Positions 25,716 to 64,000 are shown, counted from the first letter of the stretch. The stretch: DNA of 64,000 nucleotides from Alphaproteobacteria bacterium (GCA_017465405.1 JAFTWG010000008.1:13304-77303); one strand, 5' to 3'. Notes: generated from the letters alone by a model not told the origin. Numbers and translations: made by a program.

Positions 25716-25789
25716 TGGAGCGAGTAACGGGAATCGAACCCGCATTTAAAGCTTGGGAAGCTCTCATTCTACCATTGAATTATACTCGC
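25716..25789 (-). tRNA. tRNA-Gly (anticodon CCC)
   Basis: The hand-folded cloverleaf has acceptor GCGAGTA/TACTCGC, anticodon loop TTCCCAA, T-loop TTCGATT and an encoded CCA. Confidence 0.9.
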
Positions 25790-29109: not shown

Positions 29110-29187
29110 TGGGGCGGATGATCGGATTCGAACCGACGACACCCGGTACCACAAACCGGTGCTCTAACCAACTGAGCTACATCCGCC
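29110..29187 (-). tRNA. tRNA-His (anticodon GTG) with encoded G-1
   Basis: The acceptor is GCGGATG/CATCCGC, with an extra 5' G opposite discriminator C. The anticodon loop is TTGTGGT, the T-loop TTCGAAT, and CCA is encoded. Confidence 0.92.
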
Positions 29188-38271: not shown

Positions 38272-38357
38272 TGGTGCGGCTGAGAAGACTTGAACTTCCA
38301 AGAGCTTAGCTCATAACGACCTCAACGTTACGCGTTTACCAATTTCGCCACAGCCGC
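38272..38357 (-). tRNA. tRNA-Leu (anticodon GAG)
   Basis: The acceptor is GCGGCTG/CAGCCGC and the anticodon loop TTGAGGT. A long variable arm is present and CCA is encoded. Confidence 0.9.
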
Positions 38358-52698: not shown

Positions 52699-52762
52699 CA
52701 AAAGAACAAAAGAAGAACAAATATTATTGACAATTTGATTTTTTGTGCAATATAATGCAGAT

Positions 52763-53293
52763 ATGAAAAATATTTTGATTGTCATAATAATCGCCTTATT
52801 CATTACTCTACCCTGCAATGCAAAGGTCGATGTTAAATTTACGCCTTCTGACGAGTGCGAAACATCTATTATCAATTATATCAATAAAGCTAAAAATAAT
52901 ATCGATATTGCCGTATATTCAATTAATAACGACAAGATTGTATCTGCCCTCAAAAAAGCTCATAACCGAGGAGTTAATTTAAGAATATTAACCGACAAAT
53001 TACAAGCAGCAGCAAAATCGTCTAAAGTTATCGAATTGTATAAATACGGAATCAATATACGAGTTAACAGCAAGCACAAAATAGAACATAACAAGTTTGC
53101 AATTTATGATAAAAAAATAGCATCAAGCGGTTCATATAATTGGACAAATCCGGCCAGTAACAAAAACAGCGAAAACTGCCTGTTCATAATCAGAAACAAT
53201 CGAGCTGTAAACGCATATATCAAACGTTTTGAATATCTGTGGAGAATTAATACCAAACAAAAATCCGACCAATGGTTCAAAAAGAAAACATAG
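52763..53293 (+). CDS. Secreted phospholipase D-family nuclease (Nuc-like, single HKD motif)
   Basis: Signal peptide MKNILIVIIIALFITLPCNA. The HKD signature is HNKFAIYDKKIASSGSYNWT. The size is typical of Nuc-type endonucleases. Confidence 0.82.
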   Translation: MKNILIVIIIALFITLPCNAKVDVKFTPSDECETSIINYINKAKNNIDIAVYSINNDKIVSALKKAHNRGVNLRILTDKLQAAAKSSKVIELYKYGINIRVNSKHKIEHNKFAIYDKKIASSGSYNWTNPASNKNSENCLFIIRNNRAVNAYIKRFEYLWRINTKQKSDQWFKKKT

Positions 53294-53321: not shown

Positions 53322-54524
53322 CTATAAAGAATTACCTTTGTTGCGCAAAGCAGTACCCATTACTATAGATTGTTCAATTTGAGAAACAGTAATTGTTTCA
53401 ACATCATTTTTAACTTCAGATAATTGCAATTTACCTTTTGTTTCCGAAATTTTGTTCCCCATATCACAAGTTTTCTTTCCGTCTTTATTTCTTATAAAAT
53501 CGACAGTTTTTCCATCTTCTCGATAATATACCTCCGTTCCGTCCTTCGCAAATGTACGACGTATGGTTCCGTCTTTACGATAATATGTACTGTTTCCGTC
53601 TTTATCTCGGGTACTTTTTAATGTTTTACCGTCTTCTTGATAATGATGCCAACTTCCATCAGGAAAACGAACACTATCCAGAGTTTTACCATCCTCACGA
53701 TAGTGATACCATGTACCATCAGCAGAATGAGTACTATCTATCGTTTTACCGTCCTCTCGATAATAAGTGCTATTGCCATCTTTATCCCTAGTACTTTTTA
53801 GTGTTTTTCCGTCTTCTCGGTAACTCCTAAAACTTCCATCTTTGTCAAATTCAAAATCTACTGTTTTACCATCTTCTCGATAGTGTGTTGAATTGCCGTC
53901 TTTATCTCGAAATGTCCTTAAGGTTTTTCCGTCTTCTCGATAACTCCTAAAAGTTCCATCGGTCGATAACATACTGGCAATACTATTATCTTTTTCTCTA
54001 TATCCAACACTATTTCCGTGCTCATCATTTTTATAATAGATTTTTTCCAAAGATGTGAAATTTCCTTCATTGTCAAATAGACATGATACAGTTTTACCAT
54101 CTTCTTGAAAATAAGTACTATTACCATTTTTATCTCTGGTGCTCTTTAGGGTTTTACCATCTTCCCGATAGTGATACCAACTGCCATCGGCAAAATGGAT
54201 ACTATCTATCGTTTTACCGTTTTCTCTGTAATATGTAACATTTCCTTCTTCATCTCTGGAACTTTTAGGTGTTACACCATCCTCTCTATAACTCTGAAAA
54301 CAACTGTTTGGAACAAATTCTATAGTTTCAAAACCTTTTTCATCTTTTGAGAATTTTGATTTATCAGGCATAAAATTACCTTTTACTCTATTCAAAAAAG
54401 ACTTGATTTGACTTTCTAAATCAATATCATTTTTAAATTCTTCCAATTCGGTAATTTCACTATGGCTTATATTATCCCCTTTGGATAATAGCGATTTAAT
54501 ACGTGCTTGTAATTTCTTTAGCAT
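53322..54524 (-). CDS. Tandem-repeat protein (about 15 units of ~20 aa, YREDGKT...DG...; MORN-variant/YwqK-like or YD-like)
   Basis: The unit YREDGKTLKSTRDKDGNSTY recurs with variation along most of the protein. It has no signal peptide. Confidence 0.65.
   Translation of the reverse strand: MLKKLQARIKSLLSKGDNISHSEITELEEFKNDIDLESQIKSFLNRVKGNFMPDKSKFSKDEKGFETIEFVPNSCFQSYREDGVTPKSSRDEEGNVTYYRENGKTIDSIHFADGSWYHYREDGKTLKSTRDKNGNSTYFQEDGKTVSCLFDNEGNFTSLEKIYYKNDEHGNSVGYREKDNSIASMLSTDGTFRSYREDGKTLRTFRDKDGNSTHYREDGKTVDFEFDKDGSFRSYREDGKTLKSTRDKDGNSTYYREDGKTIDSTHSADGTWYHYREDGKTLDSVRFPDGSWHHYQEDGKTLKSTRDKDGNSTYYRKDGTIRRTFAKDGTEVYYREDGKTVDFIRNKDGKKTCDMGNKISETKGKLQLSEVKNDVETITVSQIEQSIVMGTALRNKGNSL
53460..54302 (-). 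repeat. Imperfect ~60-nt tandem coding repeats inside the 400-aa gene
   Basis: TACCGTCTTCTCG / TACCATCTTCTCG-type cores (reverse complement of REDGKT codons) recur on the plus strand. Confidence 0.7.
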
Positions 54525-54870
54525 TTTAACACACTCTCAAATTTCATAAAATATAGCAAATTGTAACATATTTACATATGATTAGCAACTGAATAAAATT
54601 CTTTGACAATCAAGAAATCAGGGATTTTTTTTTGCAGAGTATAAAAAGAGTATACATAAACAGAAAAATCCCTAATTTATGTATTAGTTACTCGTTACAC
54701 ACGTTTACCAAGCGTAGTTTAGACCGACACCTAATGAAGTTGCATCATAGTTATTATATCTAAATCCTCTCCTCACGCAAAACGTGTCAAATCTATAAGG
54801 TTTGATTATAAAATGACTTTCCCGAGTTTACTCGGGTATAAGTATTAAATATAATCTAAATTATCAAAAC

Positions 54871-56322
54871 TTACTCTGCTTTTTGCAGTTCAAACATAAC
54901 GTTTTTGAAAGAATTTAGAGCTGTTTCCAAATTATCAACGATTTCATCGGCCAAGATTTCTGGTTCCGGCAGATTTTCAAGGCTTTCCAAGCTTTCATCC
55001 TTTAGCCAAGTAATATCAAGGCTTACCTTATCGCGCTTGATTATCTCGTCATAGCTAAACTTCTTAAAGCGTTCGCTCTCTGTCCTCGCCATAATATTAT
55101 CTGCGTTATAGCACTTAATAAAGTCTGCTAAATGGCTGTCATTTAATGAGTTTGTGACCAAGCTTAGATTCATATTGGTGCGCAAATCATAGAACCACAC
55201 ATCATTTGTGCGGTGTCCTTTATCAAGTGGCGGATATTTATCAAAGAAAATAACGTTAGCTTTAACACCCTGCGCATAAAAAATACCGGTAGGCAGGCGC
55301 AAAACCGTATGCAGATTAAACTCATTTAACAAACGACGGCGAATTTTCTCACCGGCACCGCCCTCAAACAACACATTATCCGGCACAACCACTGCCGCAC
55401 GACCATGCGTATTTAAAATTGTCATAATATGTTGCACAAAATTGAGCTGTTTGTTTGAAGTTGTGGCAATAAAGTCATCACGGTTGTATTCTTCTTTTTC
55501 CGTTGTAACCGAGCCGTCTTCGCCCATAATCTTAAGCCCGCCTTTTTTGCCAAACGGCGGGTTTGTCAGCACCATGTCATAACGCTTATCACCGGCGTTC
55601 ATCAATGAATCGCCTTCTGTCACCGGAGAATTTTTGCCGCCGATACCATGCAGATACATATTCATAGCGCATAAGCTCACAACCAACGGTGTAATATCGG
55701 TCCCGAAAAGCTTTTTCTCTTTTAACGCTTTGATTTTTTCTCTATCCTGTGTTTGCTTCTTCATATATTCATAGGCAATCAATAAAAAGCCACCGGTTCC
55801 GCATGCAGGGTCAACAACTGTTGTATCCGGTGTCGGGTGCATAACCTCAACCATAGCCCGAATAAGCGGACGCGGTGTAAAATATTGACCGGCACCGGCT
55901 TTTGATTCCTGCGCATTTTTCTGCAACAGACCTTCATATATTTCGCCTTTAACATCAATATCCAACCCCATCCATGTTTCACCGTTAATCAGCGAAATTA
56001 AGCGCGATAAATTCGCCGGATTAGAAATTTTGTTACCGGCTTTTTTATAAATGGTGCCGATAATCCCTGTTTGTTTAGAAAGTTTATCCAATATATTTTG
56101 ATATTTATCAGAAAGTTCCGTTCCAGAAAGTTTAAGCAAATTAGACCAACGGCAATCAGCAGGCAATAAAGATTCCTCTTTGAGCAAATCTGTGCGTTCC
56201 TCGTCCATTTTTAAGAACAAAAGATAGGTAAGTTGTGACACATAATCGGTATAACCGATACCGGATTGCGCTAACACGCTGGCATAATTCCAAACTTTTG
56301 TAACGAGATTATTTTCAGTCAT
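54871..56322 (-). CDS. hsdM: Type I restriction-modification system methyltransferase subunit
   Basis: An HsdM N-terminal domain is present (LVTKVWNYASVL ... YLLFLKM). Motif I is VVDPACGTGGFLL and motif IV is VLTNPPFG. Confidence 0.93.
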   Translation of the reverse strand: MTENNLVTKVWNYASVLAQSGIGYTDYVSQLTYLLFLKMDEERTDLLKEESLLPADCRWSNLLKLSGTELSDKYQNILDKLSKQTGIIGTIYKKAGNKISNPANLSRLISLINGETWMGLDIDVKGEIYEGLLQKNAQESKAGAGQYFTPRPLIRAMVEVMHPTPDTTVVDPACGTGGFLLIAYEYMKKQTQDREKIKALKEKKLFGTDITPLVVSLCAMNMYLHGIGGKNSPVTEGDSLMNAGDKRYDMVLTNPPFGKKGGLKIMGEDGSVTTEKEEYNRDDFIATTSNKQLNFVQHIMTILNTHGRAAVVVPDNVLFEGGAGEKIRRRLLNEFNLHTVLRLPTGIFYAQGVKANVIFFDKYPPLDKGHRTNDVWFYDLRTNMNLSLVTNSLNDSHLADFIKCYNADNIMARTESERFKKFSYDEIIKRDKVSLDITWLKDESLESLENLPEPEILADEIVDNLETALNSFKNVMFELQKAE

Positions 56323-56967
56323 TTATTCCGCCACTTTTATAATTTCCTCAAAAACAACATGAGCATTAGTATATGTTCCATCCATGTTATCTTCATTAAA
56401 ACCTAATAATTTTGCATTTTGAATAGCTTTAGGTAAATCATTTCCCAGAATATCAAATATATTTTTTGCATTTTTAAATTTACCTAAATCCGTAAAATTT
56501 TGATTATAATACCTATTAATTTCTTTCATTACTTCCTTGCAACACTTTTCTGAATTTGTAAATTGCGGTGCTACTGATCTCGTATGTAGTAACAACCAAT
56601 ATTCATAGCATGGACTATTATATATAGTTCCCATATCTGTTCGTTTTGCATTTTCTGATATAATATTTTTAATGTCTTTTAACTTGTTTTGGTCTTTATC
56701 AAAACATGCAATTACCATATATCCGTTTGGGTAACTGTCTTTTATTCTTTCAAGTTCTTTTCTTTTGTTTTTAGCACTTAACTGCACGGACTTAGCATCA
56801 TTTCCTCTATTCGATTTTTCTTTTTGTATAACAATTTTTTTTCCATCATACAGTTTCTTTAGTCCATTTAAATAGCATTGCATAGATTCCGCATCTTCAC
56901 ATACAAAATAGTACAATTTATACGGTAGTTCTCTCTGTTGAATCTTTGGATTTATTTTTCTAGCCAT
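56323..56967 (-). CDS. RloB-like protein (AbiLii-like partner of the upstream ATPase)
   Basis: The N-terminal YYFVCEDAESMQCYLNGL parallels the (I/V)xCEGxxTExxYF start of RloB-family proteins. The stop abuts the hsdM ATG and the start abuts the ATPase stop. Confidence 0.6.
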   Translation of the reverse strand: MARKINPKIQQRELPYKLYYFVCEDAESMQCYLNGLKKLYDGKKIVIQKEKSNRGNDAKSVQLSAKNKRKELERIKDSYPNGYMVIACFDKDQNKLKDIKNIISENAKRTDMGTIYNSPCYEYWLLLHTRSVAPQFTNSEKCCKEVMKEINRYYNQNFTDLGKFKNAKNIFDILGNDLPKAIQNAKLLGFNEDNMDGTYTNAHVVFEEIIKVAE

Positions 56968-58266
56968 TTATAGTAACTCCACACTAGGTACTGCCCCATA
57001 TACACCATCCATATAGGCTTCATAGAAGGAAATATTCTTTCTATTCAAGTTTTTAAAATCACTTAATGAATAAAGATCAGAATAAAACCCATTATTTAAT
57101 TCTTTACTCGTAAACCATATTTGATCACGAGACAGATGTTCTCCATCCATCAGATAATGAGCATGAGAAGTAAATATGAGTTGTGCGTTATTCTTATTAA
57201 TATCCGGATTATTAAACAGCGAAACTAAATATTTGACCAAGTAGGGGTGTAGTGCATTATCCAATTCATCAATAAAAATAACTCCTCCGGTATTCATTGT
57301 ATCAAGTAACGGACCTGACATCGATAAAAATGTTTTAGTACCAGCAGATTCCATATTTTTGAAGTCAAACTCCTTTGATGTACCTTCTTCTGTTTTATGA
57401 TAACTCTTAATATCAAGAACTCTTGATTTTTTATTTGATACCACCGATTTTAATATTAGTTCTGCAAGTTTATCTGGTTCTTGCTCCAAAGCATCTTTAA
57501 CATCTTTCATAAGTTCTTCAACAGGAACTTCTTTTACGGATATATCATTAATTCCTAAATCTGCTTGCTTTAACAAATTAATGATACCATTTCCTTCCCC
57601 TTCCGCAATTTTTTGAATTGAAAAATTATGAGATAAGGAATGGGAATCTGCAATTCTTATATTATTTATCAATTCATTATAAGCTTCTTGCACTTCTTTT
57701 ATTTGACAATTATAATTATTTATTAACAAAGGTAAAAACAGTCTATTATTTAAAGTTTCATCACACCATCTTTGTAAAATTCCCTTAGACTTCTCAAAAA
57801 CAGGCTTTCCGTCAACAAATATTCTATTGTACACTCTATTTCTTAGAGCAGAGCCGTTTTGATAAATTGGAGAATAAAACAAACTTTCTTTTTGTATAAT
57901 ATTATTAAAAACTTCTACCCCGTATTCGTACAAAATATCATTTACAATAAATTGTATTTCAAAACTCATCGGTTTATTCAAATTATTATCCGTAAGAGCA
58001 TATCTTTCGTCAGGCCAAGTATTTTCCACATTCATTTTAGTACTTTTTTTTATCATGTACTTTATAAATTTCAGAGCATACAGTACATTAGACTTACCCG
58101 ATGCATTGGATCCGAAGATACCTGCAGTACGATAAAGTCGAGGAATTTTTTTTAATTTTGTTTCTATTAAATTATACATTTTTCCATTTTGTGACAACGG
58201 TTCCATAGAAAAAGTTACTTCTTCTTTAAAACTTCTAAAATTACCAAACTTAAACTCAACTAACAT
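56968..58266 (-). CDS. AAA/ABC-like ATPase (AAA_15/AAA_21 type; RloA/AbiLi-like)
   Basis: The N-terminal FGNFRSFKEE, Walker A GSNASGKSN and Walker B VIFIDELDNALHP are typical of the SMC/ABC-like defence ATPases. Confidence 0.75.
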   Translation of the reverse strand: MLVEFKFGNFRSFKEEVTFSMEPLSQNGKMYNLIETKLKKIPRLYRTAGIFGSNASGKSNVLYALKFIKYMIKKSTKMNVENTWPDERYALTDNNLNKPMSFEIQFIVNDILYEYGVEVFNNIIQKESLFYSPIYQNGSALRNRVYNRIFVDGKPVFEKSKGILQRWCDETLNNRLFLPLLINNYNCQIKEVQEAYNELINNIRIADSHSLSHNFSIQKIAEGEGNGIINLLKQADLGINDISVKEVPVEELMKDVKDALEQEPDKLAELILKSVVSNKKSRVLDIKSYHKTEEGTSKEFDFKNMESAGTKTFLSMSGPLLDTMNTGGVIFIDELDNALHPYLVKYLVSLFNNPDINKNNAQLIFTSHAHYLMDGEHLSRDQIWFTSKELNNGFYSDLYSLSDFKNLNRKNISFYEAYMDGVYGAVPSVELL

Positions 58267-58332
58267 AATACACCTTTCTTTGCGTTTTTTTTACAGAGAA
58301 TAGCTTAATATATATACTTTATTATATTAAAG

Positions 58333-59598
58333 TCAATATTTATATATTTTCTTTCCTTTGGTTTTGGAGAGAGTTTGTTTTTCTTTTTTGATGCGCTCTA
58401 AGAGGACGGAAGCCAGTTCGTCGTTGGGGTCTTGAGCAACGAGTTTGCCCTCAAAAGCTTTTTTTAAGATAGATTGCTTAAGTTTATCAGCTTTTTCTAA
58501 ACCCTCATTAACTACTTTTTCCAACTCATCTGCCACTGCAAAACGCTTTTCAATCTCTTCAACAATGCGTTGTTGCTCAGAAATATCAGATGGAAATGAA
58601 ATCGATATTCTTTTTAACGTATCAAGTATTATTCTTCGAATTGCTACTCCTGTTTTCTTATTAATAGCCTCTGCCAAAAATTTGGGAGATTTTAATACAT
58701 AAAATAAAAACTCACTTTTTAATTCTTTTTTTGGTCTCAAAATGGCCAATGAAGATAATATTACAAATTCCTTTTCATAATCTACAAGCACAACCTTACC
58801 TACAGTTCCATCTTTTGAAAATAAGACATCCCCTTTATATGGCTTACAGCCGGATTTTAACAACAATTCATATTGTTTTTTATCAATCCGCTTCGCCGCA
58901 TCAAAATCAATGATATCTTTTCTTACATCTTTAACTGTAATATAAGGATAACATCCATTACTAACTTGTTTGGGAGAAAAATGGCTGCCGTCTGTAATTT
59001 TCTCACATACATCCTTTAATTGAACTTCTTTCCAATCGGTGGTTTTGTAGAGTTTGCCTTCAAAGGCGGATTTGAGGACGGATTGGCGATATTGTTTAAT
59101 CTGTGCCTGTGCTGATTTTAAGCGCTCTACACCCTCATCAATATCTTGAAACAACGCCTCAATCTTCTCCACAATCCTTTCCTGCTCCGCCAGAGGGGGA
59201 AGATTTAAGGTTTGTTTGGCATATTCAGATATCCAATACCGTTTATGTGTATCGCTTTCATAATGTATTGTTTGCATGAGATAATAAAGAAAGTTTATAT
59301 TTATATCTTTTTTTGCATGCAAAATCTTCATTGCTGATGATTTAACCTTAAAAGGAAAATCAACAAGTTTCGAAGCCGTTGTAAAATCATCAAATATAAT
59401 TACTGTTTCTTTTGAAGCATCAAATATTCCATCTTTTTCATCAGTATACCCGAGAATAAAACTTTTTCCTGCTGTTAATACCGCTATTCCTTGCTCTTGA
59501 TAATCGGTATTGCTAACAATATAACGAGTTGGCTGTTCATAATCTAAAACATCCTCAAATTTACACTCACACCAATTTAACGGAAGTTCATTCGGCAT
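58333..59598 (-). CDS. hsdS: Type I restriction-modification system specificity subunit
   Basis: Two variable TRDs are each followed by a conserved helical repeat (AEQERIVEKIEALF...SVLKSAFEGKL and EQQRIVEEIEKRF...SILKKAFEGKL). Confidence 0.92.
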   Translation of the reverse strand: MPNELPLNWCECKFEDVLDYEQPTRYIVSNTDYQEQGIAVLTAGKSFILGYTDEKDGIFDASKETVIIFDDFTTASKLVDFPFKVKSSAMKILHAKKDININFLYYLMQTIHYESDTHKRYWISEYAKQTLNLPPLAEQERIVEKIEALFQDIDEGVERLKSAQAQIKQYRQSVLKSAFEGKLYKTTDWKEVQLKDVCEKITDGSHFSPKQVSNGCYPYITVKDVRKDIIDFDAAKRIDKKQYELLLKSGCKPYKGDVLFSKDGTVGKVVLVDYEKEFVILSSLAILRPKKELKSEFLFYVLKSPKFLAEAINKKTGVAIRRIILDTLKRISISFPSDISEQQRIVEEIEKRFAVADELEKVVNEGLEKADKLKQSILKKAFEGKLVAQDPNDELASVLLERIKKEKQTLSKTKGKKIYKY

Positions 59599-59602
59599 TT
59601 AT

Positions 59603-60487
59603 TTATCTTTCTTGACGGCTTTTTGCTTCATAATTTTCGTCTTCACCCGTTAAGTTAATAGTGAAGAGCCTTCTATCAATTAATTTTAAGAAATTCATAG
59701 TGTTATCTGCATCAAAAGATATTTGATCATTTGATATATTAATTGAAATGTTTTGTTTTCGACATGCTGAAATTACTTCATCAAGTGACAAATTATTTAA
59801 TCTACCGGATGATTTAATTGAAGCGACTAAACGTGCGGCCATTATATGATTTTGAATATATTCTTTAGCTTCATCTGAAAATATGAATACAGGTGTGTTT
59901 TGCTCTATTATTCGAATATTTGTTGCAGATGCTAGCCTTACAGTTTCACCCAAGTCAGCAATACTTTCAAAAACGAGGTACTTATTTATATACGCAATAT
60001 TATTAAAAACAAGAATATCAAAAGACTTATCTAATTTGAATAAACTTCCAGAAAAGGTTTTTAAAGCATCGCTAATAAACTGGATATACCAAGCGTGTTG
60101 GGCTGTTACGGCTTTAAAATATGTGGCCTTTTTGATAGCTAGAAGAGTCTCGTTGTTATTGTCAGTTAGTCTGCAAAAATAATATATTATATCTTCAGGA
60201 TTGTTAACAATCTGTTGATTGTCAACACTTATATCGTTGTTGTTATAAATTTCCAATATATTACGGCAATAATCACTATTTAAGCTTATTTGTAGCTTAT
60301 CTTCAGAGTTATATTTTTCAGAAGGTGAATAATCATTAATATTATCACCTAATTCGTATTCTGTATTTTCAACCATATTTACTAATATTTCCTGGACTTC
60401 CCTTGTCATTGCAATTTTATAAAATAATCCATTGTCTTTTTGTATAAAAAATTCTACAATACGAAGATCTGTAATATCAAAAGCCAT
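59603..60487 (-). CDS. Hypothetical 294-aa soluble protein; KwaB-like (DUF4868-like) by size and gene context, not verified
   Basis: The ATG directly abuts the stop of the upstream 4-TM gene (TAAATG). The size and partner match the Kiwa KwaB architecture. I cannot verify any sequence motif from memory. Confidence 0.4.
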   Translation of the reverse strand: MAFDITDLRIVEFFIQKDNGLFYKIAMTREVQEILVNMVENTEYELGDNINDYSPSEKYNSEDKLQISLNSDYCRNILEIYNNNDISVDNQQIVNNPEDIIYYFCRLTDNNNETLLAIKKATYFKAVTAQHAWYIQFISDALKTFSGSLFKLDKSFDILVFNNIAYINKYLVFESIADLGETVRLASATNIRIIEQNTPVFIFSDEAKEYIQNHIMAARLVASIKSSGRLNNLSLDEVISACRKQNISINISNDQISFDADNTMNFLKLIDRRLFTINLTGEDENYEAKSRQER

Positions 60488-61033
60488 TTAATCTAACTCC
60501 TTTTCCCAAAATAGTGAATTTGTTAAGCGTACAGCGATGATGTCATTAGATTGGATTTCTTGAATTTCCTTTTTACTAATAATAACATAACTGTGGGTGT
60601 TTTGGGGTGTTACTTTGTATAGTTTATACCCAAAGATATAAAAGAAAATATTTAAGTAATATAAATTAAAAATGTAAAATACAATTATAACAAAAACTAT
60701 CGTAGCTACAAAAAAAGGAAGTTGAGACGTTGAAGTTAAATCGTTTTGGCATAAAGGCAACGCTATTGATAAAATATATGTTGAATATTCTTCTACACAT
60801 GGTGTGATATTTGTGTTAGTACTTAATCTTATTTTTTCATCTTTAGCAATATAACACCTCAAAATCAAAGGCAAAAATGAAACAACGACTATACCCCACA
60901 TAATATAGGTATAAATTGTATTATAAGTTCCTGTCTCAAAATCAGATCCTTTTATCGCTAACAAAGCAAAAACAGGACTCACACTTGATATTAGCAATAG
61001 GAATCTTAGAATTTTTAACCCTTTTTCTGCCAT
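60488..61033 (-). CDS. Four-TM small membrane protein; KwaA-like by architecture
   Basis: The 181-aa protein has four hydrophobic helices (ILRFLLLISSVSPVFALLAI, IMWGIVVVSFLPLIL, YILSIALPL, FFVATIVFVIIVFYIF...) and starts 16 nt after the hsdR stop. Confidence 0.4.
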   Translation of the reverse strand: MAEKGLKILRFLLLISSVSPVFALLAIKGSDFETGTYNTIYTYIMWGIVVVSFLPLILRCYIAKDEKIRLSTNTNITPCVEEYSTYILSIALPLCQNDLTSTSQLPFFVATIVFVIIVFYIFNLYYLNIFFYIFGYKLYKVTPQNTHSYVIISKKEIQEIQSNDIIAVRLTNSLFWEKELD

Positions 61034-61049
61034 CTATTTAGTCTCCTCC

Positions 61050-63770
61050 TTATGCCACCAATGCCAAGCTCATATCCGCCAACAGCGGTTCTAAATCTTT
61101 GCCGAAGATTTTGCGGGCGCGGATAATACCACCTTTATCATCCATTGTATCTTGAATATCTTTCGGCTCTATGCGCACATTGGCAATAATGTAATCTTTT
61201 ATCATCTCAAGCCACTCGTTTTGCTCTGCTGTAAACACAATACCCTTTTTGAGCTGACGACCTTTCCAAAGGTTAAAACGCTGATTGGCAACTTTATCAA
61301 ACTCTTCCAGCTTATCATCTTGTCCAATAGCAAAACGCACCAGTTGCACCAAGTTGGTCAGCAACCGCACCGGATTTTTAACATGTTGGACTTTATCTTT
61401 TTCCAATAGCTCAAACGCACGCCAAATCTCTATCGGTGCCAAAGGCGGACGTGCTTCACGCATTTTTTCTGCCAGTTCACGGATATTGGCATAAGTCAGA
61501 TTTCTCTTGCCATATTGCACATTATAAATGATAGAAAGTGCATCAATTTCATCTTTATTGGCTTCTATAAATTCCTTAAACGAAGTTATGATGTTTTTAG
61601 CCTTTTCGCCGTTGATATCCGCAGAAATAACTTCATCTTGCGCCAGTTCATCAATATAAATGCCGGTTTTGGCACTCATATCAAGCAAAGTTTGCCGCAA
61701 ACTTGATTTATTAAACGGTTTAACCGCATCATCTTTGATTTTTTCTATTTCCTGCTCGGTTTTGCCCTCAAGTTTGTCCGGCTCTATGGCATCAAGAATA
61801 TTGCCGGCAATTTCATGCAACGGCTTTCCTCCGGTTAGAGCTTTTATCTTGTCTTTTTCTTCATCATTTAAGTTGCGCTCTATATTGACAATGCGTCCGG
61901 CAAGCGTGCTTAATGTGTCATCATCAGTTTTGCCTTGTGCCACTTGCTCTAAAAGCTTCTTTAACGAAACCGAACGTTTGCGCTCCAATGGTTGTGAAGC
62001 GGTCTTTTTACTCTCGGTTACACCGACAGCATCAATCAAATAAAAGAAACTTTTACCTTCAGCATTCGGAGTTACCTGCTTTAAGTCCGTATCATTAATG
62101 GAACGAACGCCACGACCTTTCATCTGCTCATAATAAAGCGATGAGCGAACATCTCGCAAAAACATTACCACTTCCAAAGGTTTAATATCCGTGCCGGTGG
62201 CAATCATATCCACCGTTACGGCAATACGCGGTAAAGGCGAAACACGAAACTGTTTAATCAGTTCTTCCGGCTTTTCACCGGTAACGTTATAGGTAATCTT
62301 TTTGCAAAAATCGTTGCCTTGCCCGAAAACTTCTCTCGTGATGCGAACAATTTCTTCGGCATGATTGTCATCTTTGGCAAAAATAAGCGTTTTCGGTGTC
62401 CACGCAAAATTCGGCTCACGTTCCGGAAACAGCTCGGTATAAAGCGAATTTTTATAACACTCCATAATGGTGCGAATTTGATTTGGCACGAGAACAGAAC
62501 GGTCTAAGTCATTCTTTTTATACTCTAAGTCTTCGTCCAGTTGCTCATAAGTTATCTTACGGCTTTTCTTATTACGCAGTGGCACAGGAAAAGATTTGTC
62601 TATTTTACCACCGTCTTCGCTGATTTTGGTTTTAATGCGTAAAACCTGATAATCTACATTAACACCATCAGCAACCGAGCGTTCATAAGGATATTCGGCA
62701 ACAATGTTGCGATTAAAATAACCAAAGGTTTGCTTAGATGGCGTAGCTGTCAAACCGATAATGAAAGCGTCAAAATATTCCAAAACTTGCCGCCAATCGC
62801 CGTAAATACTGCGGTGACATTCATCAGTTATGATAAAATCGAAATAGTCCGGCGGAAGCGCAGAATTATAATTAACTTCTTTAGGCGCACCCATTGAACC
62901 GAGCTCGTAAGCGGAAGCATCTTCGTCTGCCTCATCATAATCTTCTTCACCGCAGAGCATTGAATAAAGCCGTTGAATGGTGGTAATCACAACTTTGGCA
63001 TCAGAATCAACCTTATTATGTTGCAAGTGCTGAGCAATATAAACTTGAGGAAATAGGCGATTTACATCAGGTAGGCGAAAGTTTTCAAACTCTTTTTTGG
63101 TTTGTTTGCCGAGATTATTGCGGTCTACCAAGAACAAAATACGCTTTGCTCCGGCATATTTAAGCAAGCGATATGAAAAATTACAAGCCGTAAAAGTTTT
63201 TCCGGCACCGGTTGCCATTTGAATAAGCGCTTTTTGATTGCCTTCCGCTAATGATTTTTCTAAGCCTTCAATGGCTTCAAATTGACAATCACGCAAAGAG
63301 CCTTTTTCTAATGTAGGCATATTTTGCAAGCGATTGCGCAAGGTGCTTTCAACTTCTAACATATTCAGCAATGATTGGGGCGAATGAAAAGCAAAAATGC
63401 GCCGAGAACGGCAGATTTTATCCCGCCCGTCACAAAAGAAAGTCTCATTACCAGTGCTTTCATAAATAAAAGGTAACGGCATTTGCCAGTTTTTAACGTA
63501 TTCCGGTAAATGGCAAGCATATCCATGCGATTGATTTTCAACACCGCTTAAAGCAACACCGGCTTTCTTTGCTTCTATAACACCGCAGGCTTTGCCATCT
63601 ACAAACAAAAGATAGTCAGCCTCTGTGTTATCGTCCATCAAAAACTCGCGAACAGCCACGCCTAAACCAGCTGTGCGGTCAAAATCCTCACGGTTCTGTA
63701 TTATCCAACCGGCATTTATCAGTTGTTCATCTATTTTTTCTCTTGCTTTTTCTTCAGGGGTTGAAGTCAT
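61050..63770 (-). CDS. hsdR: Type I restriction-modification system endonuclease/helicase subunit
   Basis: The N-terminal nuclease region is present (EADYLLFVDGKACGVIEAKK). Helicase motif I is MATGAGKTFT and motif II is ITDECHRS. The long C-terminal helical domain resembles EcoEI-type HsdR. Confidence 0.93.
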   Translation of the reverse strand: MTSTPEEKAREKIDEQLINAGWIIQNREDFDRTAGLGVAVREFLMDDNTEADYLLFVDGKACGVIEAKKAGVALSGVENQSHGYACHLPEYVKNWQMPLPFIYESTGNETFFCDGRDKICRSRRIFAFHSPQSLLNMLEVESTLRNRLQNMPTLEKGSLRDCQFEAIEGLEKSLAEGNQKALIQMATGAGKTFTACNFSYRLLKYAGAKRILFLVDRNNLGKQTKKEFENFRLPDVNRLFPQVYIAQHLQHNKVDSDAKVVITTIQRLYSMLCGEEDYDEADEDASAYELGSMGAPKEVNYNSALPPDYFDFIITDECHRSIYGDWRQVLEYFDAFIIGLTATPSKQTFGYFNRNIVAEYPYERSVADGVNVDYQVLRIKTKISEDGGKIDKSFPVPLRNKKSRKITYEQLDEDLEYKKNDLDRSVLVPNQIRTIMECYKNSLYTELFPEREPNFAWTPKTLIFAKDDNHAEEIVRITREVFGQGNDFCKKITYNVTGEKPEELIKQFRVSPLPRIAVTVDMIATGTDIKPLEVVMFLRDVRSSLYYEQMKGRGVRSINDTDLKQVTPNAEGKSFFYLIDAVGVTESKKTASQPLERKRSVSLKKLLEQVAQGKTDDDTLSTLAGRIVNIERNLNDEEKDKIKALTGGKPLHEIAGNILDAIEPDKLEGKTEQEIEKIKDDAVKPFNKSSLRQTLLDMSAKTGIYIDELAQDEVISADINGEKAKNIITSFKEFIEANKDEIDALSIIYNVQYGKRNLTYANIRELAEKMREARPPLAPIEIWRAFELLEKDKVQHVKNPVRLLTNLVQLVRFAIGQDDKLEEFDKVANQRFNLWKGRQLKKGIVFTAEQNEWLEMIKDYIIANVRIEPKDIQDTMDDKGGIIRARKIFGKDLEPLLADMSLALVA

Positions 63771-64000
63771 TTGAAAGTTCCAAAAGTTATATTATGGCAA
63801 CGATTTTATACTAAATTCCTCGGAAATCAAGTTGTATTTTATTACTCACAATTCCCTAAAATTATTTTTATAGCTTTTATAAATTTCTTTGTATTTTATG
63901 AAGTTCTTTAAAAATATAAACTGCTAATTTGAATACTTTACAAAACTTGAAAGTATCATAATAACTTATTAGAGATTATAGTGTTTGTGCTTACTATTTG

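Follow-up and report, generated by a model that had tools for sequence, protein, structure and literature searches.

A 64,000-nt stretch of DNA from an Alphaproteobacteria bacterium, hereafter the window, on which all operon positions are counted, contains seven consecutive minus-strand genes in the order hsdR, kwaA, kwaB, hsdS, abiLi, abiLii, and hsdM (Table 1). This operon is a type I restriction-modification (R-M) system into which Kiwa and AbiL, two further anti-phage systems already known, are inserted, each precisely at one of the two junctions between its genes. We refer to the interval from the hsdR stop to the hsdS start as slot 1 and to that from the hsdS stop to the hsdM start as slot 2. 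Both cargo pairs lie between the genes of one multi-gene defense system and on the same strand, and are genetically embedded defense systems in this sense.

The junction gaps measure 16, 0, 4, 66, 0, and 0 nt in gene order, and hsdS and hsdM follow hsdR and hsdS at distances of 1451 and 2010 nt, respectively. A sequence-only reading of this stretch had reported the same seven open reading frames (ORFs), coordinates, and gaps, with distances of about 1.45 and 2.0 kb, all of which we could confirm; its description of two inserted two-gene cassettes in one tightly packed type I hsd operon is correct, and Pfam and PADLOC matches support the hsd assignments and give the cassettes their names. The TAA stop of kwaA directly abuts the kwaB ATG, as does that of abiLii the hsdM ATG. 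In base composition the operon is a mosaic, with a GC content of 0.41 in hsdR and hsdM, 0.34 in hsdS, and 0.28-0.30 in both cassettes (0.29 in kwaA), compared to 0.34 in the whole window. The KwaB protein was found on 9 metagenome contigs, and an identical seven-gene order with identical gene lengths was displayed at three places, among ordinary chromosomal genes. Since different samples carry the same seven genes of the same lengths, the arrangement is no assembly accident. The nearest genomes belong to uncultured gut and rumen Alphaproteobacteria.

Table 1. Features of the operon in the window, and slot proteins of related hsd loci without a Pfam or PADLOC match (L numbers are our labels for loci)
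Feature	Position	Strand	Evidence
hsdR, type I restriction subunit, 906 aa	61050..63770	-	Pfam, PADLOC, PDB relative
kwaA, Kiwa membrane component, 181 aa, slot 1 cargo	60488..61033	-	PADLOC KwaA
kwaB, Kiwa DUF4868 DNA-binding effector, 294 aa, slot 1 cargo	59603..60487	-	PADLOC, Pfam
hsdS, specificity subunit, two target-recognition domains, 421 aa	58333..59598	-	Pfam, PADLOC
abiLi (RloA-like), ABC-type ATPase, 432 aa, slot 2 cargo	56968..58266	-	PADLOC, Pfam
abiLii (RloB), 214 aa, putative nuclease of the TOPRIM type, slot 2 cargo	56323..56967	-	Pfam, PADLOC
hsdM, N6-adenine DNA methyltransferase subunit, 483 aa, last gene	54871..56322	-	Pfam, PADLOC
P_hsdR, candidate operon promoter	63803..63830	-	promoter scan, in-register conservation
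P_abiL, putative AbiL promoter and leader in the 66-nt gap	58267..58345	-	promoter scan, conservation, sequence model
Terminator-like hairpin CCCGAG-UAAA-CUCGGG, weak candidate	54821..54836	-	read from sequence, folding
207-235-aa membrane-helix slot proteins	L004:9328-10008, L005:9345-10004, L006:9297-10004, L007:9381-10004, L063:5658-6320
Conserved 60-aa slot protein	L002:8670-8852, L009:9818-10000
257-, 264-, and 502-aa slot proteins	L006:7288-8061; L009:7018-8526; L013:8012-8806

Components of the operon

All three subunits of a type I R-M enzyme are encoded. HsdR matched Pfam ResIII (9e-40), EcoEI_R_C (3e-31), HSDR_N, and Helicase_C as well as PADLOC REase_I (4e-51), has the type I R subunit 3h1t as its PDB relative, and carries the motifs MATGAGKT and DECH together with an ExK nuclease motif. 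HsdM matched N6_Mtase (7e-76), HsdM_N, and PADLOC MTase_I (2e-185) and contains the motifs DPACGTGGF and NPPF, and HsdS, with two stretches of Methylase_S (PADLOC Specificity_I, 2e-64), possesses two recognition domains. The hsd genes are predicted to encode a type I R-M enzyme, with methylation and ATP-dependent cleavage as its predicted activities. Among relatives, hsdS is conserved in its 5' ~50 nt, its central part, and its 3' part, and the two recognition domains differ; the first of them shares 96% nucleotide identity with that of L001.

The slot 1 cargo is Kiwa, a gene for a multi-pass membrane protein, kwaA, followed by the adjacent DUF4868 gene kwaB. The 181-aa protein matched PADLOC KwaA over its full length (7e-21), and its homologs in related loci carry Pfam PF28043 (KwaA). 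The 294-aa protein matched KwaB in PADLOC (1e-51) and Pfam PF16162 (3e-13). KwaA was reported to sense membrane perturbation at phage or plasmid entry, and KwaB to bind incoming DNA and to stall replication and late transcription; KwaB is inhibited by the DNA mimic Gam (PMC11785009). By analogy, Kiwa of the window is predicted to protect by membrane sensing and KwaB-DNA binding. Cassette contexts were obtained via protein homologs and their contigs and by an alignment-based scan, and for KwaB the context of five relatives was read. P0002 (79% identity), P0007 (74%), and P0010 (60%) occupy slot 1 of homologous hsd loci, and two are stand-alone: P0004 (77%) neighbors serine recombinases and DNA methylases, and P0009 (61%) is located in an island with an integrase. 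For KwaB, no relatives were returned by a single-protein pattern scan of GTDB genomes, a phage collection contained no match for KwaB of the window's clade, and a sequence search of the PDB yielded nothing for KwaB, AbiLi, or AbiLii.

The slot 2 cargo is AbiL, also known as RloAB, an ATP-binding cassette (ABC)-type ATPase followed by an RloB-family protein. AbiLi matched its namesake in PADLOC with 4e-88, the PARIS component AriA with 2e-30, and Pfam AAA_21 with 2e-29, and its Walker A residues G52, S56, G57, and K58 and Walker B residues D333 and E334 are invariant in 43 homologs. AbiLii matched Pfam RloB (4e-23) and PADLOC AbiLii (1e-14), plus, weakly, JetA. Its AlphaFold model (predicted local distance difference test score of 91) has a four-stranded alpha/beta core with an invariant E24 after strand 1 and an invariant D90-x-D92 at the end of strand 3, a placement that in this model fits a TOPRIM domain. 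AbiL has been grouped with PARIS and RloAB as systems that combine an ABC ATPase with a TOPRIM/OLD nuclease, with neither a trigger nor a target named for AbiL (PMC13064643).

AbiLi-RloB pairs were also found in L003, L064, L065, L067, and L145. AbiLi relatives occupy slot 2 in L003 (99.5%) and L064 (68%), and others are stand-alone, one located at the edge of a prophage (59%) and one flanked by chromosomal genes (53%). Thus, Kiwa and AbiL both appear to be autonomous modules that also occur on their own. A single-protein pattern scan of GTDB with AbiLi returned only the contig of L003. In a further scan of 79 diverse AbiLi-like loci from GTDB species with a degenerate DNA motif for NPP[F/Y], which covered ~7 kb around each locus, gave counts only, and detected nearly all known hsdM genes in the control loci L001-L048, the methylase motif was present near 12 loci, with ~4.5 chance matches expected. 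One motif-positive locus, L145:7001-13083 from Streptomyces sp. NBC_01340, was confirmed as AbiLi-RloB-hsdM-hsdS; its 920-aa HsdM and its HsdS belong to another hsd family, in which the order is M-S, so that AbiL and hsdM have come to adjoin independently here. Separately, the abiLi/abiLii (56962-56980) and kwaA/kwaB (60482-60500) junctions share the 19-nt motif GGAGTTAnnTAAATGGCT, which comprises Shine-Dalgarno sequence, stop, start, and an Ala codon and, in these unrelated cassettes, may reflect convergent translational coupling.

Two cargo slots in one hsd family

Relatives of the operon found through hsdM retain the order hsdR, hsdS, hsdM (R-S-M). HsdR identity is 72-99% in gut Alphaproteobacteria, 61% in Campylobacter concisus, 52% in a Bacteroidetes metagenome-assembled genome (MAG), and 45% in Ilumatobacter, and C. 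concisus HsdM is 65% identical to that of the window. The comparison with the rlo genes of Campylobacter drawn in the sequence-only reading is therefore apt, because the hsd family itself includes C. concisus loci at 61-65% identity. We counted slot occupancy in 16 distinct loci retrieved via hsdM alone and in a set of 21 that added 4 loci found via cargo and the window. Slot 1 is filled in 12, slot 2 in 10, and both in 10 of the 16 via-hsdM loci; in the full set the corresponding fractions are 17/21, 13/21, and 13/21. Across the 21 loci slot sizes range from -4 nt up to 2.7 kb between hsdR and hsdS and 2.2 kb between hsdS and hsdM. The Ilumatobacter loci L019 and L020 have 4-nt ATGA overlaps at both junctions, which is the basal form of the R-S-M hsd family. 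Since both slots are filled in 10/16 via-hsdM relatives, double occupancy is the usual state of this family and no oddity of the window genome. The words "unusually tight" in the sequence-only reading are thus an overstatement, considering this frequency and that the packing of other cargo is equally tight or even involves overlaps with neighboring genes.

Slot 1 of relatives harbors AbiJ_NTD4 (PDC-S32), an OLD-like 610-aa ATPase, DUF4145 (PD-T7-4-like) with a 502-aa partner, DUF2806-like and DUF6119 proteins, several proteins without a family, and, in C. concisus L011, a true RloC (AAA_13; PDC-S06, 1e-225). In slot 2 we found membrane proteins of 207-235 aa, two further kinds of protein with 60 and 154 aa, and, in one relative, an IS200-like fragment, whereas in L017:7531-10004, from an actinobacterial Ilumatobacteraceae MAG, HEC-01A/B (ABC ATPase and DUF4276) precedes hsdM at the position of AbiL. 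The cargo families PDC-S32, PDC-S06, and HEC-01 derive from the work of Payne, Hughes, Fineran, and Jackson (2024; bioRxiv 10.1101/2024.01.29.577857). Several occupants had no Pfam or PADLOC match, namely, the 207-235-aa proteins with an N-terminal membrane helix, the conserved 60-aa protein, and the 257-, 264-, and 502-aa proteins (Table 1).

Nucleotide homology between loci breaks off sharply at the stop codon of hsdR, at both the start and the stop of hsdS, and 2-5 nt ahead of the ATG of hsdM. In a repeat search, the borders of the cassettes showed neither direct nor inverted repeats, and no recombinase adjoins the operon. Integron-like or otherwise site-specific cassettes were rejected on these grounds, the breakpoints being the ends of conserved hsd genes.

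Backbones 97-99% identical to hsdR and hsdM of the window carry other slot 1 cargo in L001, L002, L003, L009, and L064. L003 combines the same AbiL with a different slot 1, L064 combines DUF6119 with AbiL, and L063 and L057 carry Kiwa with a different or empty slot 2. Cargo combinations thus appear to be freely reassorted among hsd backbones that are nearly identical. Between the window and L003, the AbiL cassette differs at 8 of 1944 coding nucleotides (window 56323-58332 versus L003:7991-10000), and the BLAST segment containing it is 96.3% identical overall, which by arithmetic leaves ~93% for the remainder, mainly hsdM. This difference suggests that the AbiL cassette is younger than its flanks and points to a recent transfer. 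The spacer before abiLi also looks identical in the window and L003. Kiwa embedding, by comparison of sequences, seems to be old in the lineages of L057 and L063, where one continuous nucleotide match of 75-80% connects hsdR, across kwaA and kwaB, with the start of hsdS.

Homologous recombination within the conserved flanks provided by the hsd genes would be the simplest route of cargo exchange between strains. As recombination arms, slot 1 would use the 3' end of hsdR and the 5' end of hsdS, and slot 2 the conserved 3' region of hsdS and the 5' end of hsdM. Selection would then retain only products with all reading frames intact.

Transcription signals and surroundings of the operon

Because the total of the promoter scan equals chance, only conserved promoter-like sites were taken into account, and sites inside kwaB and elsewhere, which are not conserved, were set aside. 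Two sites are conserved. P_hsdR consists of TTGATT and TAAAAT with 16-nt spacing, ~33 nt upstream of the hsdR ATG. Its hexamers are found in register upstream of hsdR in L003, L004, L005, L006, L009, and L063, where the surrounding sequence has diverged, and L001 and L064 have a TTGCAT/TATCAT variant at this position.

P_abiL lies at the hsdS-abiLi junction and consists of a -35 box TTGACT (58336-58331), an 18-nt spacer, a -10 box TATATT (58312-58307), a TCTCTG box, and the ribosome-binding site AAAGAAAGG; in the promoter scan, this site had 10/12 matches. These elements are in register upstream of abiLi in nine loci with 39-100% protein identity, including copies without hsd genes nearby. A sequence model of P_abiL has one match in the window and also matches directly upstream of abiLi in L003, L009, L066, L068, L069, L070, and L074, but it found no match upstream of distant AbiLi homologs with <=35% identity, and the element appears to be specific to an AbiLi subfamily. 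Homology to a stand-alone AbiL copy starts 5 nt before the -35 box. The hsdS TGA stop is located inside TTGACT, and the last hsdS codons thus come from the cassette edge. An invariant TCTnTG box (58290-58300, minus strand) between the -10 box and the abiLi ribosome-binding site is in register in L064, L065, L067, and L074-L078, down to 39% identity, and could be an operator or leader element. Taken together, the 66-nt gap appears to hold AbiL's own conserved sigma-70-type promoter and leader, which would move with the cassette and would also drive hsdM. Given the conservation of the P_abiL elements, including upstream of stand-alone AbiL copies, abiLi-abiLii-hsdM very probably have a second, internal promoter.

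Kiwa differs from AbiL in this respect. The 16-nt gap after hsdR contains a GGAGG ribosome-binding site only, and nucleotide homology to stand-alone Kiwa extends from 3 nt before the kwaA ATG to a few nucleotides past the kwaB stop. Because this homology excludes any upstream sequence, Kiwa appears to be embedded as bare, promoterless ORFs.

No terminator-like hairpin was detected in any operon junction. Folding of the 66-nt spacer yielded no stable hairpin (z, -0.39), and a terminator or riboswitch at this place was rejected. A hairpin 34 nt past the hsdM stop is present in both the minimum-energy and the centroid folds (region z-score, -2.2), without a canonical U-run. Rfam matches in the window were three tRNAs only, with none in the operon. 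Co-transcription is likely, but probably not as a single transcript. The expression of three systems from one transcript, as proposed in the sequence-only reading, agrees with the shared strand and the junctions without terminators and is at odds with the conserved internal promoter in the 66-nt gap.

Just downstream of the operon, a 400-aa protein of YREDGKT-type repeats (DUF2963) is encoded at 53322-54524 (minus strand), followed at 52745-53293 (plus strand) by a gene for a nuclease-like protein of the PLD family (182 aa), which apparently has a signal peptide and whose weak DrmC-like PADLOC matches probably reflect the PLD domain only. Upstream of hsdR, two loci with an identical operon differ: L070:1-6717 has genes of unknown function for 396- and 656-aa proteins, and L071:1-1392 has an OmpH gene, so that the left flank is variable. 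The tRNA genes (25719-25789, 29113-29186, and 38275-38357; all minus strand) do not adjoin the hsd operon.

Co-inheritance, coupling, and known embedded systems

We consider it probable that the locus is a chromosomal R-S-M type I operon acting as a two-slot scaffold, with promoterless Kiwa in slot 1, AbiL with its own promoter in slot 2, and no obligate coupling among the three systems. P_hsdR would drive hsdR-kwaA-kwaB-hsdS and, since no terminator intervenes, transcription would read on; P_abiL would provide a second start for abiLi-abiLii-hsdM, and translation would be coupled at the 0-4 nt junctions. Each system would work by its own known mechanism: the type I enzyme would cut unmethylated DNA, Kiwa would sense membrane perturbation at phage entry with KwaB binding the incoming DNA, and AbiL would act as a late abortive-infection nuclease module. 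The outcome would be a layered defense that is passed on and transferred as a single unit and in which biochemical coupling is not obligatory. The arrangement is thus best read as co-inheritance and probable co-expression, considering the internal promoter, the free cargo exchange, and the stand-alone copies.

Several points weigh against this. The promoter scan yielded 42 sites versus 40 expected, a total not above chance in AT-rich DNA, and we infer the promoters, the read-through, and the activity of all three systems. The sample of loci is small and partly chosen by similarity to the cargo itself. Foldseek returned no significant PDB match for the AbiLii model, leaving its TOPRIM fold unconfirmed by fold search. 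Furthermore, pairs of an ABC ATPase and a nuclease recur directly upstream of hsdM, in the window, L003, L064, L017 (HEC-01), and L145, which hints at more than random co-location.

The sequence-only reading had seen in the position of hsdM, downstream of both cassettes, a tight genetic interlock, in which a polar event in a cassette would affect host protection. Type I restriction depends on the complex HsdR2-HsdM2-HsdS, whereas HsdM and HsdS are required for methylation (PMC11411939). When hsdM or hsdS is no longer expressed, restriction is therefore lost along with modification, which leaves an r-m- cell instead of causing self-attack; the interlock is weak. In support of this, in L025:9970-10050 (ruminal_MAG_71), hsdR residues 1-826 are joined to hsdM residues 329-483 at a GAGTTT(G/A)AT microhomology. 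The breakpoints correspond to window positions ~61293-61302 and ~55325-55334, and ~6 kb including both slots and hsdS are deleted. This locus shows what appears to be a dead remnant of the same operon, in which loss of the interior was evidently tolerated. We find it improbable, then, that the methylase strictly depends on a single transcript with uninterrupted expression of both cassettes and that such an interlock stabilizes them. The shared strand, the 0-16 nt junctions at five of the six boundaries, the gaps without terminator-like hairpins, the conserved promoter upstream of hsdR, and Kiwa without upstream sequence of its own would all suit this scenario, but it conflicts with the conserved internal promoter, with the L025 deletion from hsdR to hsdM, and with the free replacement of cargo among near-identical backbones, and polarity resulting in r-m- without self-restriction provides no addiction (PMC11411939).

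Functional coupling, also raised in the sequence-only reading, would be facultative at most, given that the cassettes occur alone and cargo is shuffled freely, although for AbiL it is still conceivable. AbiL might be silent while restriction works and abort the infection when a phage DNA mimic or another anti-restriction protein disables R-M, similarly to PrrC-EcoprrI or PARIS. An embedded guardian has a precedent in PrrC, AbiLi also yields a match to AriA of PARIS, the literature groups AbiL, RloAB, and PARIS, of which PARIS is triggered by the type I inhibitor Ocr, and the ATPase-nuclease pairs before hsdM in L003, L064, L017, and L145 are found in independent loci. Nevertheless, we regard this role as unlikely, since most AbiLi relatives have no methylase motif within ~7 kb, close relatives stand alone, the cassette has its own promoter, and the literature names no trigger of AbiL. 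In addition, the nearly identical cassette of L003 lies behind an hsdS only 41% identical overall, and any sensing would thus have to be independent of DNA specificity. A broader variant, to which we assign little probability, is that the trio forms a coherent module against DNA-mimic inhibitors: type I R-M can be blocked by Ocr or ArdA and KwaB by Gam, both being DNA binders, and AbiL would sense the mimics or the loss of R-M and abort the infection. If this were true, the location of P_abiL ahead of hsdM would link expression of the guardian to that of the methylase, and the choice of cargo would be functional, not arbitrary.

At the opposite extreme, the cassettes could be pure hitchhikers, selfish passengers co-transferred with a selected R-M system that bring no benefit to this host or are decaying. 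A selfish benefit of embedding was proposed by Payne et al., the GC content of the cassettes compared with that of hsdR and hsdM indicates a different origin, and the IS200-like fragment occupies slot 2 of one relative. Yet all four cargo ORFs are intact with conserved catalytic and nucleotide-binding residues, ribosome-binding sites and stop-start coupling are maintained, the same operon occurs in several samples, and Kiwa has long co-diverged with hsdR in L057 and L063. We therefore deem this explanation very unlikely.

Embedding of defense genes in type I R-M systems is already known, and the window is a clean new example, not a new kind. Type I hsd loci of Campylobacter that contain rlo (restriction-linked orf) genes were described by Miller et al. 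2005 (cited in PMC2610378 and PMC2928727); they share with the window the order hsdR, cargo, hsdS, hsdM, and C. jejuni M1 has rloA-rloB between hsdR and hsdS. RloB is the Pfam family of AbiLii, and C. concisus carries an RloC-type gene in slot 1. In contrast to these loci, the window has its RloAB-type pair in the second slot and Kiwa in the first, and its host is an uncultured gut/rumen alphaproteobacterium. Payne et al. reported embedding in type I R-M, BREX, DISARM, and Hma, with 96.7% of embedded systems in the orientation of the host system, and proposed co-regulation, linked transfer, and backup defense (bioRxiv 10.1101/2024.01.29.577857). The main text of that study makes no mention of Kiwa or AbiL and contains neither junction-precise slots in one hsd family nor a contrast of promoterless cargo with cargo carrying its own promoter. 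In the literature searched, we found no text reporting Kiwa embedded in type I R-M.

Single embedded systems offer further parallels. EcoprrI (hsdM-hsdS-prrC-hsdR), like the window, has an ABC-ATPase abortive-infection gene embedded in a type I operon. PrrC, however, consists of one protein, an anticodon nuclease that the R-M enzyme physically keeps silent and that is almost only found embedded, whereas AbiL is a two-gene module, mostly stand-alone, with no interaction with R-M known. A guardian of the PrrC/RloC type was rejected, since no window protein combines an N-terminal ABC ATPase domain with a C-terminal anticodon nuclease, and PrrC is absent from the best 25 PADLOC matches of AbiLi. 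TgvAB on VPI-2 of Vibrio cholerae and DarTG2 in the RptR-hsd island of enteropathogenic Escherichia coli (EPEC) are embedded two-gene systems that were experimentally HsdR independent. They differ from the window in being a type IV restriction system and a toxin-antitoxin pair, respectively, in having one embedded system each, and in hsd gene order. The seven-ORF EPEC island, for which its authors suggest a recombination hotspot at the embedding site, has a dedicated repressor, and none was seen at the window operon. PARIS (AriA/AriB) resembles AbiL in its ABC ATPase, which is paired with a TOPRIM-type nuclease in PARIS and with a putative one in AbiL; PARIS senses anti-restriction proteins, is triggered by Ocr, and cleaves tRNA (PMC11464382). 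Identity of the slot 2 cargo with PARIS was rejected, because AbiLii belongs to the RloB family, not to DUF4435, and AbiLi matches AbiLi far better than AriA.

Against this background, the new increments are Kiwa as a recurring promoterless slot 1 cargo, an AbiL promoter and leader that move with the cassette and lie upstream of hsdM, and two junction-precise slots with free combination of cargo. The known workings of R-M, Kiwa, and AbiL are unchanged by these findings. The contrast between promoterless Kiwa and AbiL with its own promoter upstream of the methylase gene provides a testable point on the regulation of embedded systems. Because the same slots hold known defense genes in sister loci, the family-less occupants (207-235-aa membrane proteins and 60-, 257-, 264-, 353-, and 502-aa proteins) are good candidates for new defense genes by "guilt by embedding." The operon illustrates in compact, natural form how three layers of anti-phage defense can be inherited together, and one hsd family of gut and rumen Alphaproteobacteria and Campylobacter emerges as a two-slot cargo platform with junction-precise exchange.

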